From positions 1 to 55,883 of the IMG/VR virus record IMGVR_UViG_3300037961_005406: a stretch of 55,883 nucleotides of DNA; one strand, 5' to 3'. The position numbers and the translations under genes are program-made. This DNA is from a virus. Taxonomy: Duplodnaviria; Caudoviricetes. The notes below the pieces were generated by a model. It worked only from the letters and a program-made list of their open reading frames with translations. It ran no database searches and was not told the DNA's origin. This document shows, piece by piece, positions 30,892 to 37,692 of the stretch; within the stretch, counting starts at the first letter, position 1; the number at the start of each line of letters is the position of its first letter.

Positions 30892-30934
30892 ATTATGTAG
30901 ACTGACTAGGCAGACGGTATAGAGACTACATAAT
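30892..30934 (+). other. Structured 5' leader element
   Basis: ATTATGTAG/CTACATAAT 9-bp stem enclosing CTG-ACTAGG-CAG and ACGGTATAGAGA. Confidence 0.5.
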
Positions 30935-30958
30935 GAACGCTATACAAAGGAGAAAATT

Positions 30959-31504
30959 ATGGCAAATACTACATTTGACGGGCCAGTCAGATCAAAAAAT
31001 GGCTTTATTAATTTAGGACCTGCTGCAGTAAAAGCAGTTACTTTAGCAACAGATTTAACTGTTGCTGACCATGCTGGAAGATTAGTAACAATGGATCCAG
31101 CAGCAACACCTACTGCAATAACATTACCTGCAATTATTTCAACTGCTGATTCTGCTATCGCAGGACCAGGAAGTGATCCAAATAATAAAAACACAATAGG
31201 TACAACTTTTGAAATTCTTTTTATTGATGATTTCACAGGAACTATTAAAACTGCTAGCACAGATGACAAATTTATTGGTGCTGCTACAATCGGTATTGAT
31301 GCGTCAGTAGCCGGTAAACAATTTGTTGTAGCAACTAATGATAATGAAGTTAATCTTAATGGTGAAGCAGGAGCATCTGTTGCCACAACAGGTGGTCTAA
31401 AAGGTTCAAGAATTAAATTTACTGCAATCGCAGCTAACTTATATGCTGTAGAGGGTCAGCTTGTTGGTTCTGGATCAATTGCAACACCTTTTGATGCACA
31501 GTAA
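30959..31504 (+). CDS. Virion structural protein (head fibre/decoration-like)
   Basis: MANTTFDGPVRS.NGF N-terminus; Ala/Thr/Gly-rich. Confidence 0.7.
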   Translation: MANTTFDGPVRSKNGFINLGPAAVKAVTLATDLTVADHAGRLVTMDPAATPTAITLPAIISTADSAIAGPGSDPNNKNTIGTTFEILFIDDFTGTIKTASTDDKFIGAATIGIDASVAGKQFVVATNDNEVNLNGEAGASVATTGGLKGSRIKFTAIAANLYAVEGQLVGSGSIATPFDAQ

Positions 31505-33985: not shown

Positions 33986-34582
33986 GTGCAAATTATTCCG
34001 ATATTTTCTAAACCAATTTATATTAATAAAATAAATATAGAGACCAAAAAAATTTTTAACATTTTAAATAATTTTCATTTAAGTAAATCAAGAGACGATT
34101 CTAAATCTAGTGATATTGCAATAAATTACAATGTACTTAATATGGCTGAATTGAATGAATTAAAAGAAAAAATTGTAATATCTTATGAAGACTTTCTTAA
34201 CAACAATTTACATTATAAAAACAAATTTAAAATAACCACTTCTTGGATAACTAGAACTTTACCAGGCCAAAAATCACACGCTCACAATCATTTAAACAGT
34301 ATGTTTAGTGGTGTATTTTACGTACAAACTAAAAAAAATTGTGGAAAAATTCAATTTCAAAATTTATTTAATAAAACTTTTCATTTAAATATAAAAAGTT
34401 ATAATATCTACAATTCTGATTTTTGGGATATAGAACCATCAGATGGTTTAATTTTAATTTTTCCTTCTGAGATATATCATCAAGTATTAGAAAATTTTTC
34501 TGATCTTGAAAGAGTTTCAATAGCTTTTAATTTATTACCTATTGGAAAAATTGGAGAACATGATAGTCAATTAAAATTATGA
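33986..34582 (+). CDS. 2OG-Fe(II) oxygenase (HxH type)
   Basis: HAHNHLNSMFSGVFY...LIFPS..YH.V...RVSIAFN. Confidence 0.85.
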   Translation: MQIIPIFSKPIYINKINIETKKIFNILNNFHLSKSRDDSKSSDIAINYNVLNMAELNELKEKIVISYEDFLNNNLHYKNKFKITTSWITRTLPGQKSHAHNHLNSMFSGVFYVQTKKNCGKIQFQNLFNKTFHLNIKSYNIYNSDFWDIEPSDGLILIFPSEIYHQVLENFSDLERVSIAFNLLPIGKIGEHDSQLKL

Positions 34583-36114
34583 TTAAAAAAATAGTTATCG
34601 TTGGAGGAGGCACAGCTGGTTGGATAACTGCATCCATACTTATATATAAATTAAATCCAAAAATAAAAATTTCGTTGATAGAATCTAAAGAAATACCAAT
34701 TGTTGGAGTCGGAGAAAGCACGACAGGGACTATTTCTCAACTAATAGATGATCATACTCATTTAGGAGGTATAAGAAATTTTTTAAAAGAAACAGGAGCC
34801 ACTTACAAATATGGTATTAGACATGTGGATTGGTTACGAAAAAACCATTCATTTGTTAGCCCCATAGGATCTTCTTTTGAAAGATGGAAAAAATATCCAA
34901 CAGAAGACTATGACCATATTAGAATTTATCATGTGGCAGAAAAATTAAATTATGTAATACCACTTCAAAATCAATTGATGCTTCAAGATAAATTATATTA
35001 TGTAAAACATGGAGATAAATATCAAATGATGCATGATTTAGATGATGGTTTACACATAGATGCCTTTAAAACTTCAGATTATTTTAGAAAAAAATGTTTA
35101 TCTACAGGCAGAATAACAAGAATTGAGGATACAATTCAAAGTTTTATCAAAAATGATCTTGGTGGTGTTAAAACTTTAAAATTAAAATCTGGTAAAGAGT
35201 TAGACGCTGATTTATTTATTGATTGTTCTGGATGGCATAAAACTTTAATTAAAGATATGGGAGTAAATTTTGTTTCTTATGAAAATAATTTATTAACAAA
35301 TAGAGCTATTTTATTTCCTAAAAAAAATAAGGAAAATGATATACTGAAAAATCATCTTACAGCAACTGCAAGAAAATACGGTTGGACATTTGAAATTCCT
35401 TTACAAGAAAGAACAGGAAGAGGTTACATAATAAATCGGCATATGGTTTCCGATGAGGATGCAGTTAAAGAAATGAATGAGTGTTTTAATGAGGAGATTG
35501 AAGTTAAAAAAACAATAAACTTTGAAGTAGGTAGACTTAATAATTTTTGGATTAAAAATGTTTTAGCAGTAGGGCTATGTTCTAATTTTATAGAACCTTT
35601 GGAAGCTACCGGTTTACATACAACAATTGAACAAGTCGAACATTTTTGTGATTATTATTTAAATGATACTTTGGATTTATATGATTATTATTTACAAAAA
35701 AATTACAACGATCACATTACAAGTTTTATTGATGATATAAGAGATTTTATTTTACTTCATTATCAAACAAAAAGAACTGATACAGATTTTTGGATAGAGT
35801 CTTCATCTAAAAAAAGATGGACAGAAGAGTTTAAAAGAAAGATGTACACTTGGAAAAAAAGAATGCCAAGAAAACACGATTATCATCACAAAGGTAGATT
35901 ACACGGTTTAAGTAATGCTTTGTGGTTACAAGTTGGTCATGGTTATGAAATTTTTGATAGTGAAATAGCAAAAAAAGAGTTAGAATATTATGGATTATAT
36001 GATATAGCCAAACAGCAATTAAATGAAATAGGAGTTTTTTCTAAGTATTGTGTGGATAATGCTATGACTACTAATGACTTTTACAAACTACTAAATAATG
36101 GTAAAATAAATTAA
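34579..36114 (+). CDS. Flavin-dependent tryptophan-halogenase-like protein
   Basis: GGGTAGW, IVGVGEST, FIDCSG, GWTFEIPL (WxWxIP variant), FIEPLEATG. Confidence 0.9.
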   Translation: MIKKIVIVGGGTAGWITASILIYKLNPKIKISLIESKEIPIVGVGESTTGTISQLIDDHTHLGGIRNFLKETGATYKYGIRHVDWLRKNHSFVSPIGSSFERWKKYPTEDYDHIRIYHVAEKLNYVIPLQNQLMLQDKLYYVKHGDKYQMMHDLDDGLHIDAFKTSDYFRKKCLSTGRITRIEDTIQSFIKNDLGGVKTLKLKSGKELDADLFIDCSGWHKTLIKDMGVNFVSYENNLLTNRAILFPKKNKENDILKNHLTATARKYGWTFEIPLQERTGRGYIINRHMVSDEDAVKEMNECFNEEIEVKKTINFEVGRLNNFWIKNVLAVGLCSNFIEPLEATGLHTTIEQVEHFCDYYLNDTLDLYDYYLQKNYNDHITSFIDDIRDFILLHYQTKRTDTDFWIESSSKKRWTEEFKRKMYTWKKRMPRKHDYHHKGRLHGLSNALWLQVGHGYEIFDSEIAKKELEYYGLYDIAKQQLNEIGVFSKYCVDNAMTTNDFYKLLNNGKIN

Positions 36115-36115
36115 T

Positions 36116-36592
36116 ATGAATCTTTCACGTAACTTTACTCTTCAAGAGCTAATTAAATCTGACACTGCAATCAGGTTGGATATAAATAATAATCCAAACT
36201 CTGGTCAAATAGAAAAACTAAAAGCACTTTGTGAAAATATTTTGCAACCCGTTCGGGATCACTTCGGTAGAGTTAAAGTGACTAGCGGATTCCGTAGCGA
36301 GCAGCTGTGCCTAAAGATAGGTAGCTCAGTCAACAGTCAACATGCCCGTGCAGAGGCTGCGGATTTTGAAGTGATGGGAACAGACAATGCAGAATTAGCT
36401 GATTGGATCAATCAGAATCTAGACTACGATCAATTAATATTGGAGTTCTACACTCCTGGTGAGCCGAACAGTGGGTGGATACATTGCAGCTATACACCTG
36501 ACCAACCAAGAAAACAATTCTTACACGCGTACAAATCAGAAGGTAAAACTAAATACAAACCTGTGATTGGTAAAGCTAAAGATTTGGTATGA
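36116..36592 (+). CDS. Peptidase M15 endolysin (Zn D-Ala-D-Ala carboxypeptidase-like)
   Basis: LSRNFTL.E...SGFRS...SQH...AAD...WIH.S. Confidence 0.9.
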   Translation: MNLSRNFTLQELIKSDTAIRLDINNNPNSGQIEKLKALCENILQPVRDHFGRVKVTSGFRSEQLCLKIGSSVNSQHARAEAADFEVMGTDNAELADWINQNLDYDQLILEFYTPGEPNSGWIHCSYTPDQPRKQFLHAYKSEGKTKYKPVIGKAKDLV

Positions 36593-37128
36593 TTAACGTA
36601 ATCCAACATTTAGAAAAACCTTTACTAATACAAAGCACTTTTATTAAAGCAAAAATAGGCGATTTCGATTCAGAATATTTTATAAACAAAATAGAACATT
36701 CTTTAAAAGAAGATAATTCAAAAAATAATATGACAAATGTAAAAGGTCAAATGACTAATTGGACAGCATTTGTAAATGATGAATATTTATCGAAAATAAT
36801 TTTTAATTTTTTAACTCATATAGAATATAATTTTGAACAAAATTTACAGTTGATAGAGGCTTGGGGTATAAAAATGCAAGAAAATAATTATACAAAACTT
36901 CACAATCATAGAAGATGTGATTGGTCTGCTATACTTTATTTAAACGATTGTTCTACTCCTTTAATTTTTCCAGAATCAAATATGGAAGTATATCCAGAAG
37001 CAGGATTGTTCGTTTTTTTTAGTGGTTTTATGAAACACCAAACTAGAACAATTAAAAAAAATGAGGTAAAATATGCCATACCTTGTAACTTTAATTTAGT
37101 TGGTTTACCACAATATAACAAAGATTAG
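36589..37128 (+). CDS. 2OG-Fe(II) oxygenase (HxH type)
   Basis: WG...HNH...SAILYL...F....H...KY...N. Confidence 0.75.
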   Translation: MINVIQHLEKPLLIQSTFIKAKIGDFDSEYFINKIEHSLKEDNSKNNMTNVKGQMTNWTAFVNDEYLSKIIFNFLTHIEYNFEQNLQLIEAWGIKMQENNYTKLHNHRRCDWSAILYLNDCSTPLIFPESNMEVYPEAGLFVFFSGFMKHQTRTIKKNEVKYAIPCNFNLVGLPQYNKD

Positions 37129-37135
37129 GAGAGAA

Positions 37136-37279
37136 ATGACAATATCAAGATCACAAATATCCAAACAAGTTGATGGCAAATTAAGAGGTGCCAGAGATGA
37201 AAAGAAAAAAGATAAAAAAACAGTTAAAAAAAATAAACCCCTTAAAAAGAATCCTCTTAGCAGGACATTTACTGTTTAG
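37136..37279 (+). CDS. Small basic peptide (47 aa) with MCP-like N-terminus
   Basis: AGGAG RBS; MTISRSQISKQVDGK... Confidence 0.6.
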   Translation: MTISRSQISKQVDGKLRGARDEKKKDKKTVKKNKPLKKNPLSRTFTV

Positions 37280-37349
37280 GCAAAGAGTGGTACAATCTAA
37301 GAAGTTGTACAACCGAAAAAGGCTTAAACATGACAAAACTATGTGCTAG
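37197..37349 (+). CDS. ArfA-like small basic protein (50 aa)
   Basis: GAGGT RBS 7 nt upstream; MKRKKIKKQLKKINPLKRILLAGHLLFRQRVVQSKKLYNRKRLKHDKTMC. Confidence 0.55.
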   Translation: MKRKKIKKQLKKINPLKRILLAGHLLFRQRVVQSKKLYNRKRLKHDKTMC

Positions 37350-37692
37350 AGGCAAAGCGGCCGCTAAAAGAAAATTTAAAGTATACCCGTCTGCATATGC
37401 GAACGCATACGCTAGTAAGATTTGTGCGGGTAAAATAAAAGATCCATCAGGAACTAAAAGAAAAGATTGGGGACCTAAAAAAGCTAGTAAAGGTGCAGAT
37501 ATAAAAATTAAAAAAGTTGCAAAAGCTTTACACAAAGCATCAGGATTACATAAACAACAAGCTAAAACATTAGAATCAATAAAAGCTAATAAAGGAGCTT
37601 ATACAGGTTCTTATATGAAAAGCGAGATTGCTGGAGAACCTGCATCTAATGAAAGTTTAGTTTCATACTATGGAGACATGATAGATGTCTAG
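37330..37692 (+). CDS. Small basic protein
   Basis: AKRKFKVYPSAYAN motif (DUF5872-like). Confidence 0.7.
   Translation: MTKLCARGKAAAKRKFKVYPSAYANAYASKICAGKIKDPSGTKRKDWGPKKASKGADIKIKKVAKALHKASGLHKQQAKTLESIKANKGAYTGSYMKSEIAGEPASNESLVSYYGDMIDV

Follow-up and report, generated by a model that had tools for sequence, protein, structure and literature searches.

A gene nested in a pelagiphage of the HTVC023P type encodes a short basic peptide that probably belongs to the ArfA superfamily

Introduction

Does a short, very basic reading frame of a marine phage encode a divergent relative of ArfA, and what might such a peptide do in the infected cell? ArfA is a backup ribosome-rescue factor of some bacteria, and its taxonomic range is comparatively narrow. 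The question is raised by an open reading frame (ORF) of 50 codons, here called ORF B, at positions 37,197 to 37,349 of the IMG/VR virus record IMGVR_UViG_3300037961_005406, of which the whole 55,883-base contig, rated 92% complete and referred to below as the window, was analysed. The source phage is an HTVC023P-type pelagiphage (SAR11 phage): the 3 kb around ORF B match Pelagibacter phage HTVC023P with 75% identity over 59% of the length, and other pelagiphages match more weakly. An initial annotation, made from the letters of the DNA alone, had described ORF B as encoding an ArfA-like peptide. In the present study, we find that ORF B is a real gene which most likely is translated from its own start in the +1 frame of the 3' end of an upstream gene (ORF A), that its product very probably is a member of the ArfA superfamily, and that an action on ribosomes, by analogy with ArfA, is the explanation that we slightly favour.

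Results

The features on which the argument depends are as follows.

37197..37349, + strand: ORF B, ArfA-like peptide of 50 aa plus TAG stop (ORF listing; frame conservation; family hidden Markov model (HMM))
37183-37190, + strand: Shine-Dalgarno-like AAGAGGTG, 6 nt before the ATG of ORF B (read from the sequence; putative function)
37236..37331, + strand: ArfA-like core, residues N14-H45 of ORF B (hhalign against E. coli ArfA N14-H45)

The ORF exists where the initial annotation had placed it. Its longest form in the ORF listing is 37188..37349 (+) with a GTG start and 53 aa, and from the ATG at 37197 the frame runs for 50 codons, including the quoted core INPLKRILLAGHLLFRQRVVQSKKLYNRKRLKH, to the TAG at 37347-37349. 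The good ribosome-binding site that had been claimed for it was found as AAGAGGTG, and the ordinary stop codon and the absence of a hydrophobic C-terminal tail were likewise confirmed; what had been overlooked is that ORF A overlaps the first 83 bases of ORF B and that there are relatives in which the two are fused in frame. Residues 1-13 of the peptide are a lysine run, MKRKKIKKQLKKI, and K, R or H account for 42% of all residues. In relatives, GAGGTG or CAGGTG is located 6-7 nt upstream of a possible ATG or TTG start in frame B.

To examine the conservation of the frame, 80 IMG/VR loci were fetched with the next gene downstream (gene C) as the anchor, and the 260 bases upstream of it were translated in three frames; with the window, HTVC023P and phage 023Pt_psg01, these loci made up 83 sources. 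The B-frame motif NP[IL][AK][KR].L....[FY][RK].[KR]V[IV]QSKKLYNRK was present in 29 of them (the window and 28 of the 82 other loci), a variant of it was present in one further locus (L025), and it persisted in loci whose upstream ORF ends in a quite different sequence. Conservation in related phages, which the initial annotation had put forward as a check, was thus obtained, together with a coding pattern of substitution. In a gap-free block of 15 codons, located mostly beyond the stop of gene A, the ratio of nonsynonymous to synonymous differences (pN/pS) among 27 distinct copies was 0.26 in frame B, a value biased downward by the choice of loci according to the B-frame motif, compared with 1.45 and 1.61 in the other frames. 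In the same copies, Arg is kept in frame B through CGA, AGA, CGT, CGC and AGG, and Ser and Pro are kept through four codons each. Because the loci were chosen by the motif, this synonymous codon switching represents sounder evidence than pN/pS.

The peptide was also found to be a member of a large family. As a single query, it retrieved six proteins from the protein collections, whereas the 31-member B-family profile retrieved 529 at E<=0.01, most of them stand-alone ORFs of 42-65 aa that begin a few residues before NPIAK, and an exhaustive HMMER search of 1.84 billion representatives (clusters at 50% identity) with the profile gave 345 representatives at E<=0.001. The B-family HMM scored ORF B with an E value of 3.2e-15 among the 1447 ORFs of the window. 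Among families already defined, phrog_20887 was matched by the ORF B peptide (E 3.2e-4, 21.6 bits, residues 13-44) and by 27 of the 31 B-family members at E<=0.01, and the Pfam family DUF7230 (PF23876) was matched by 13 of the 31 at E<=0.1. A tblastn search of 50,697 phage records with the 50-aa peptide, a short query of low complexity, gave nothing at E<=10, and a profile search of three phage records did find B relatives where tblastn had not. Not all relatives of the phage carry B: HTVC023P and several loci carry A alone, with a shorter stretch before gene C, the B frame of HTVC023P being closed at the usual place and that of locus L058 being interrupted by stops. ORF B is, with hardly any doubt, a real phage gene.

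Two related ORFs were observed elsewhere in the genomes of HTVC023P-type phages. HTVC023P itself has, at about 30917-31039 of MN698239.1 (L280:1516-1638, +), a 40-aa ORF (MKKKNLIAKLLR...KKKYNRKK) that the B-family profile matches with an E value of 5e-7 and that lies wholly within the gene for the annotated 461-aa acidic protein gp46, in the +1 frame; it may represent another ArfA-like gene in a nested position, in a genome that has no B at the usual place. In phage 023Pt_psg01, a stand-alone ArfA-like ORF of 52 aa (MKRNPVAQQLRTPKFKPKKVESKKKYNRKKE...) is located at L279:1501-1659 (+), in an early-gene context beside a homing-endonuclease-like gene, and the position of the ArfA-like module is therefore not fixed among phages of this type.

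We then compared ORF B directly with bacterial ArfA. The E. coli core that the initial annotation had cited proved to be exact, being residues 13-45 of K-12 ArfA as translated from NC_000913.3. By BLASTP, the alignment of the two was restricted to LFRQRVxxxKK (8 of 11 positions identical, E 0.002 for this single comparison). For a more sensitive comparison, an ArfA HMM was built from 30 distinct natural cores taken from genomes matching PF03889; sampling of the class of E. coli gave 4 matches in 300 genomes and an order-level sample gave 111 in 301, from which 30 loci were used, and a further 120 ArfA proteins and 80 loci, all from close enterobacterial relatives, were left out. The HMM scored the ORF B peptide at 11.7 bits, a score that only one of 5000 shuffled versions of the peptide attained, and its relatives L008 and L032 at 12.7 bits (0 of 5000) and 8.6 bits (5 of 5000), and the reverse search of E. 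coli ArfA with the phage profile gave 8.6 bits (3 of 5000). Among the 1447 stop-to-stop ORFs of the window, ORF B was the top match of the ArfA HMM (E 0.066). Alignment of 28 phage cores with the 30 ArfA cores by hhalign gave a probability of 72% with a P value of 3.4e-5 over 29 columns, and its score of 23.8 exceeded that of every one of 300 column shuffles, of which the best scored 21.0, and that of the reversed alignment (7.1). Enlarging the phage set to 148 family sequences left the alignment unchanged, at a probability of 53% and a P value of 1.3e-4. Given the many families that could have been named for comparison, this direct match alone is suggestive only. The KGKGS[YF] segment, by which the 30 natural ArfA cores had been selected and which all of them contain, is absent from the ORF B peptide. 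Neither the fused relatives nor the six frames of the whole 55.9-kb record gave a match to Pfam ArfA at E<=10, and an NCBIfam scan of the ORF B peptide and four relatives gave nothing relevant. A language-model search of the named clusters of the ESM Atlas ranked DUF7230 first (0.93) and an ArfA cluster 19th (0.91), a result of low recognition value that serves as a lead only.

The connection between the two families was provided by gp30 of phage HTVC027P, which is reported to be highly expressed both early and late in infection and which "contains an ArfA (PF03889.18) domain" (PMC12753301). In our hands, gp30 (58 aa) matched the Pfam ArfA model with an E value of 4e-4 and 20.2 bits, under the cut-off of 25.5. 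The N-terminal half of its core is like the B family (NPVAKEVRTPKYKSQII) and the C-terminal half is like ArfA (KPKKGRGSFKR). The gp30 family, assembled as 45 distinct members from 80 IMG/VR loci, comprises 32 members with KKG[KR]GS[YF] and 13 without it, and 10 of these 13 read KK-[LIVK]Y[ND]RK, like the ORF B peptide. The hhalign probabilities were as follows.

Whole gp30 family (45 members): 96.6% against ArfA (E 5.1e-10); 97.6% against the B family (E 2.7e-12)
32 members with GKGS: 97.3% against ArfA; 96.7% against the B family
13 members without GKGS: 57.5% against ArfA; 98.3% against the B family

The scores of the whole family against ArfA and against the B family were reached by none of 150 column shuffles. 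At E<=0.01, PF03889 was matched by 32 and DUF7230 by 23 of the 45 gp30 members; among the representatives found with the B profile, of which 132 of the 150 best were scanned against Pfam, PF03889 was matched by 6 and DUF7230 by 51, with two exceeding 27 bits for the latter. One of the six that match PF03889 (P0321) reached 26.9 bits against the ArfA cut-off of 25.5, though it reads KKSYNRK and has no GKG, and another protein (P0301) unites an ArfA-like AAALANPLFRKRI with a B-like KSKKVYNRKK. No gp30-type gene was found in the window, where the best match of the gp30 HMM among the 1447 ORFs was ORF B itself (E 0.063). Taken together, these profiles lead us to conclude that a single superfamily comprises ArfA, the gp30 type and the DUF7230/phrog_20887 type, and that ORF B very probably is a divergent member of it, homologous to ArfA and belonging to the branch represented by phrog_20887 and, for its relatives, by DUF7230. 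The ArfA-like identity that had been proposed is thus supported by family profiles and intermediates, and the part that does not stand is recognition of the peptide itself, which remains below the Pfam ArfA threshold. The missing GKGS segment had been correctly noticed: hhalign places its gap at GKG, and the intermediates show a simple deletion.

Other arrangements of the ArfA-like core were observed among these proteins. It is fused in frame to the end of an M15 peptidase (P0264) and to an unrelated N-terminal part of 90 aa (P0244), and in two other proteins it is extended at the C-terminus, by about 95 aa in P0245 and by about 190 aa in P0246. P0321 has a short hydrophobic tail reminiscent of bacterial ArfA.

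To consider what the peptide might do, we mapped it onto E. coli ArfA, for which a structural account is available. According to that account, His21-Glu30 (the mid-region) sits in the A site and residues 31-48, nearly half of them basic, lie in the mRNA tunnel, where a cut at Asn47 is tolerated and a cut after Met40 is not; Leu19, Leu24 and Phe25 bind release factor 2 (RF2) at Trp319, Val198 and Phe217, and Ala18 packs in an N-terminal minidomain (aa 2-16) whose ordering opens RF2 (Demo et al. 2017, PMC5378476). The hhalign correspondences were as follows.

ArfA N14 = ORF B N14; I16 = L16; L19 and L20 = I19 and L20
ArfA L24 and F25 = ORF B L26 and F27; R26, Q27, R28 and V29 = R28, Q29, R30 and V31
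ArfA K33 and K34 = ORF B K35 and K36; Y39 = Y38; R41 and K42 = R40 and K41; H45 = H45
ArfA G35-G37 (G35-K36-G37): absent from ORF B, in which A22 and G23 are inserted

The motif of the A-site mid-region (hydrophobic, L-F-R-x-R-V, then KK) is present in ORF B, the hhalign alignments spanning 29-31 columns, and the RF2-binding hydrophobic patch Leu19/Leu24/Phe25 has its counterparts in I19/L26/F27. The basic tunnel segment corresponds to K35-H45, and 8 of the 19 residues that follow V31 are K, R or H. In the wider B family, only the equivalents of L20, F25, R/K26, R/K28, V29, KK, Y and RK are steady. The alignment thus indicates that ORF B has recognisable equivalents of the elements by which ArfA is positioned in the A site and tunnel, and no recognisable equivalents of those that switch RF2 on.

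The explanation that we favour, at slightly better than even odds, is that ORF B is a nested, real gene for a 50-residue, very basic peptide of the ArfA superfamily without GKG(S) that acts on ribosomes by analogy with ArfA. The A site would be occupied by the middle of the peptide (ILL..HLLFRQRV), which would there touch a class-I release factor; in the infected cell, this contact would free the nascent chain and make ribosomes available again. By this analogy, the phage probably acts on stalled host ribosomes through ORF B. We regard binding to the ribosomal tunnel or A site as fairly probable, and release-factor-dependent rescue as a serious possibility that falls somewhat short of even chances. 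Because ORF B has an ordinary stop codon and no hydrophobic tail, its peptide would also escape the transfer-messenger RNA (tmRNA)-dependent control of E. coli arfA. Prediction of a complex between the ORF B peptide, represented by the 31-member family alignment, and E. coli RF2 gave a score of 0.01 against a mark of 0.32 in a run without controls, which weighs neither way.

Besides the bias in pN/pS noted above, a number of observations weigh against this explanation. With respect to coding, when loci without B are included, frame A is more constrained (0.59) than frame B (1.72) in the block in which A and B overlap. In 11 of the 29 sources, frame B has no ATG upstream of the motif, so that independent initiation is not assured across the family, although GTG or TTG behind GAGGTG or CAGGTG is present. 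With respect to homology, a profile match of ORF B itself to ArfA, which the initial annotation had named as its refuting test, was not obtained, the Pfam model (PF03889, cut-off 25.5 bits) giving none at E<=10 for the peptide; DUF7230 gave no match for the peptide either (cut-off 27 bits), nor in a six-frame search of the record. Some family members score at chance against the ArfA HMM, such as L021, whose 0.2 bits were reached by 1222 of 5000 shuffles. The P value of the direct hhalign comparison, scaled database-wide, gives an E value near 1, and the ArfA link therefore rests on the intermediates. A phmmer search of Protein Data Bank chains with the fused relative P0001 gave none at E<=10. 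With respect to function, the counterpart of Ala18 is Arg18, the N-terminal minidomain has no alignable counterpart, its place being taken by the lysine run, and the tunnel segment is three residues shorter than that of ArfA up to the aligned His45. Furthermore, experimental data on phage ArfA-like proteins were not found in the literature searched.

An alternative is a peptide that binds the ribosome like ArfA and brings about no release, either plugging the mRNA tunnel or A site or keeping a release factor compact, and that in this way modulates or shuts down host translation. The mid-region and the tunnel segment are conserved and the RF2-activating Ala18 and the ordered minidomain are not, many family members have only 2-5 residues before NP, and the A18T mutant of ArfA is reported to bind RF2 without release (PMC5378476). 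However, the N-termini of bacterial ArfA vary too (L166, L167), P0301 and P0321 pair an ArfA-like N-terminal half with a short C-terminal half, and a phage needs working ribosomes. We consider this explanation unlikely.

Returning to the explanation of a nested gene that acts on ribosomes, we next considered how ORF B would be expressed. The following features are involved.

37136..37279, + strand: ORF A, 47-aa gene, homologue of HTVC023P gp50, in the -1 frame relative to B, with its stop inside ORF B
37127-37131, + strand: AGGAG site preceding ORF A (read from the sequence)
37205..37233, + strand: lysine-coding A-runs A6 (37205-37210), A7 (37214-37220) and A8 (37226-37233), hypothetical sites of a +1 shift or transcriptional slippage

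ORF A matches gp50 of HTVC023P (46 aa) with 74% identity over 46 aa (tblastn, E 1.3e-15), and it is this homologue, and not B, that is annotated at this place in HTVC023P; the N-terminal part of gene A has a pN/pS of 0.36 in its own frame. A resemblance of the gene A N-terminus to that of ArfA, seen by eye, was dropped, as no alignment supports it. Frame B is the +1 frame of an upstream ORF whose stop falls within B in 28 of the 29 sources. In most of these sources, the upstream ORF is a member of the A family; seven distant loci have a different gene of 91-127 aa in its place, and their A homologue is located further upstream. An ATG precedes the motif in frame B in 18 of the 29 sources and derives from Asp-Glu codons of A.

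An arrangement of this kind could also mean that the functional product is a fusion of about 69 aa, consisting of the A N-terminus and the ArfA-like core, which would arise if the ribosome shifted by +1, or if one A were lost in transcription, at the A-runs of 37205-37233, the 47-aa and 50-aa ORFs being the unshifted read-outs. In-frame fusions of an A N-terminus (M-A-I-T/S-R-S/G-Q...) with the ArfA-like core make up 16 of 121 family proteins, and some of them are clusters on several contigs (P0237, 14 members; P0240, on 7 contigs of up to 65 kb). An A-run of at least 6 is present in every source with an A/B overlap, and the nearly constant +1 relation and the 11 sources without a frame-B ATG point in the same direction. 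In addition, the C-terminus of gene A (KKNPLxRTFTV) holds the start of the ArfA-like motif and is kept even in phages without B, which, with the fused relatives, fits a once-fused gene split by a frameshift. However, in the window ORF B begins with an ATG of its own that follows a good ribosome-binding site, an ATG is likewise available to frame B in 18 of the 29 sources, the sources without ATG have possible GTG or TTG starts, and many relatives stand alone, beginning just before NPIAK. The overlapping ORF is not A in the seven distant loci, and the fusion points vary between contigs, with P0001, P0002, P0005 and P0128 being singletons that may reflect homopolymer errors. The contigs of two DNA runs showed no indel in the A-runs, although assembled contigs cannot show rare slippage, and other samples carry 37232 A>T, which interrupts the A8 run; one RNA-library contig, in which carry-over of DNA is possible, spans 37223-37395 and has no A-run indel. 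A fused product thus appears improbable to about the same degree as binding without release. The good ribosome-binding site and the many stand-alone relatives favour separate initiation, and ORF B is most likely translated from its own AAGAGGTG and ATG, nested in the +1 frame in the 3' end of gene A, although this start is itself inferred.

The neighbourhood of ORF B bears on a further explanation. On the upstream side, its neighbours encode a tryptophan-halogenase-like protein, an M15 peptidase (endolysin) and a 2OG-Fe(II) oxygenase; on the downstream side follow basic proteins of small size and unknown function, and a gene of the structural module. The next gene downstream is the following.

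37330..37692, + strand: gene C, 120 aa, phrog_27331, whose first 20 bases overlap the end of ORF B

With the lysis gene on one side and a series of small basic proteins and structural genes on the other, ORF B could encode a small basic nucleic-acid-binding or virion-associated protein that has no ribosomal role and whose likeness to ArfA reflects shared ancestry only; its high content of K, R and H would suit this, and DUF7230 and phrog_20887 are families of unknown function. However, conservation falls on the positions that serve ArfA in the A site and the tunnel and is more than a matter of charge, and relatives are found in other genome contexts, such as gp30 beside the small terminase gene on the other strand. 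A role away from the ribosome is therefore less probable still than the two preceding explanations.

Several further observations concern these neighbours. At 34579-37128, the tryptophan-halogenase-like gene (phrog_2928, E 1e-102) and the 2OG-Fe(II) oxygenase flank the M15 endolysin, and the oxygenase has no counterpart at the same place in HTVC023P. In contigs of other samples, insertions of 3 nt (ACT, or AG plus A) were seen at 37327-37329, right before the ATG of gene C; they lengthen ORF B by one codon (KHDDKTMC, as in most relatives) and keep both frames. At 37364-37450, which encodes the N-terminus of gene C (KLCARGKAAAKRKFKVYPSAYANAYA...), contig depth summed over two marine DNA runs rises from about 7 to 1400-2600 across the first 40 codons, and this segment is therefore common to very many other organisms in those samples. 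The search with gene C gave at least 600 related stretches, and among the matches listed, 569 encode a gene C relative.

Finally, the DNA of ORF B was examined for signals other than coding, and one candidate site was found.

37268..37296, + strand: promoter-like TTTACT, 17 nt, TGgTACAAT, with 9 of 12 matches plus TG, inside ORF B

The extended -10-like TGgTACAAT is located 34 nt before gene C. Promoter-like sites in the region showed no excess over shuffles (4 compared with 6.2). At 37285-37315, the B codons GTG-ATA/GTA-CAA and TTG-TAC show hardly any synonymous variation among 27 distinct loci, and GTG makes up only 13% of the Val codons in the window; this near-invariance may represent a second DNA constraint, such as a promoter for downstream genes. 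RNA folding of the region gave a z value of -2.75, and the 19 aligned copies contain a near-invariant 8-pair hairpin with compensatory change in 0 of 8 pairs and an outer stem that is not conserved. The fold was rejected as evidence of a regulatory RNA at ORF B, the hairpin being short and without covariation and its outer stem not being conserved. That ORF B is untranslated, with only ORF A being real and the conservation before gene C reflecting a promoter, leader or ribosome-binding site, could draw on these signals and on HTVC023P, in which the A homologue alone is annotated and the B frame is closed, and is nevertheless very improbable, because a promoter or leader cannot account for the hundreds of stand-alone and in-frame fused homologues in other contexts, and the synonymous switching of Arg, Ser and Pro codons in frame B, the link of the family to ArfA, the count of promoter-like sites and the absence of covariation all argue against it.

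Discussion

This study indicates that a real gene, nested in a pelagiphage genome, encodes a peptide that very probably is a divergent relative of ArfA, and it suggests a function on the ribosome for families to which none has been assigned. A bolder possibility, which we hold to be rather doubtful, is that the DUF7230/phrog_20887 peptides are minimal ArfA derivatives that lack the GKG loop, the RF2-activating N-terminus and tmRNA control, and that in HTVC023P-type pelagiphages they are made conditionally, by a +1 shift or slippage on lysine A-runs of an upstream gene, and are tied in this way to the translation state of the host; instead of simple rescue, they might then work through a release factor that is not RF2 or retain ribosomes for the use of the phage.

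Divergent ArfA-like peptides appear to be common in marine phages (345 clusters at 50% identity), including relatives of the most abundant SAR11-infecting group, the HTVC023P type being reported as the most abundant group of pelagiphages (PMC12753301). DUF7230 and phrog_20887, as families of unknown function, gain a testable hypothesis. If the peptides act on stalled ribosomes, phages would bring a rescue or hijack factor of their own into a host whose mRNA probably undergoes degradation by the phage, which would bear on how infection sustains translation in the ocean's most abundant bacterium, and these peptides would offer minimal natural ArfA variants for studying release-factor switching without a stop codon. 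The nested +1 layout with fused relatives is also a compact case of overlapping genes or recoding that can be tested directly. In the literature searched, no paper mentioning DUF7230 was found, and ArfA was paired with a pelagiphage only in PMC12753301.

Compared with ArfA of E. coli (PF03889; b4550), ORF B shares the small size, the basic character and the motif order N-x-[IL]...L...[LF]-F-R-Q-R-V...K-K...Y-x-R-K..K-H, and its hydrophobic patch and basic tail can be aligned with those of ArfA, the family link being made through intermediates. It differs in having no GKG, two residues inserted before HLLF, Arg in place of Ala18 and no counterpart of the N-terminal minidomain. The control of E. 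coli arfA by non-stop mRNA and tmRNA (PMC10107115) is absent, since ORF B has an ordinary stop and no hydrophobic C-terminal tail. ORF B is also a phage gene, and the closest cultured relatives of this phage have an alphaproteobacterium as their host. HTVC027P gp30, from the same HTVC023P-type phage group, shares with ORF B the core NP[IV]AK..R....[YF]K..V[IV]..KK and differs in its N-terminal KWDGRSRPxxDxY..W.RIF module of about 25 aa and in its position adjoining the small terminase gene on the other strand. The families DUF7230 (PF23876) and phrog_20887 hold the relatives of ORF B, which itself matches phrog_20887 and not DUF7230.

With ArfT of Francisella and BrfA of Bacillus subtilis, both of them small proteins, a release factor can act in the absence of a stop codon, and ArfT is described as using RF1 or RF2 (PMC6299226, PMC6881298). 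The likeness of ArfT and BrfA to ORF B is by description, as functional analogues of its proposed role only. Gene g10 of Citromicrobium phage RXM, a phage of a marine alphaproteobacterium, is annotated as ArfA (PMC8953757), and its likeness to ORF B is by this annotation. Phage ArfA genes were thus already known, by annotation only, in HTVC027P (PMC12753301) and in Citromicrobium phage RXM (PMC8953757). What the present study adds to them is a large, divergent branch without GKG, which its profiles place in the ArfA superfamily and which in this phage is nested in the +1 frame of another gene and has relatives fused to it in frame.

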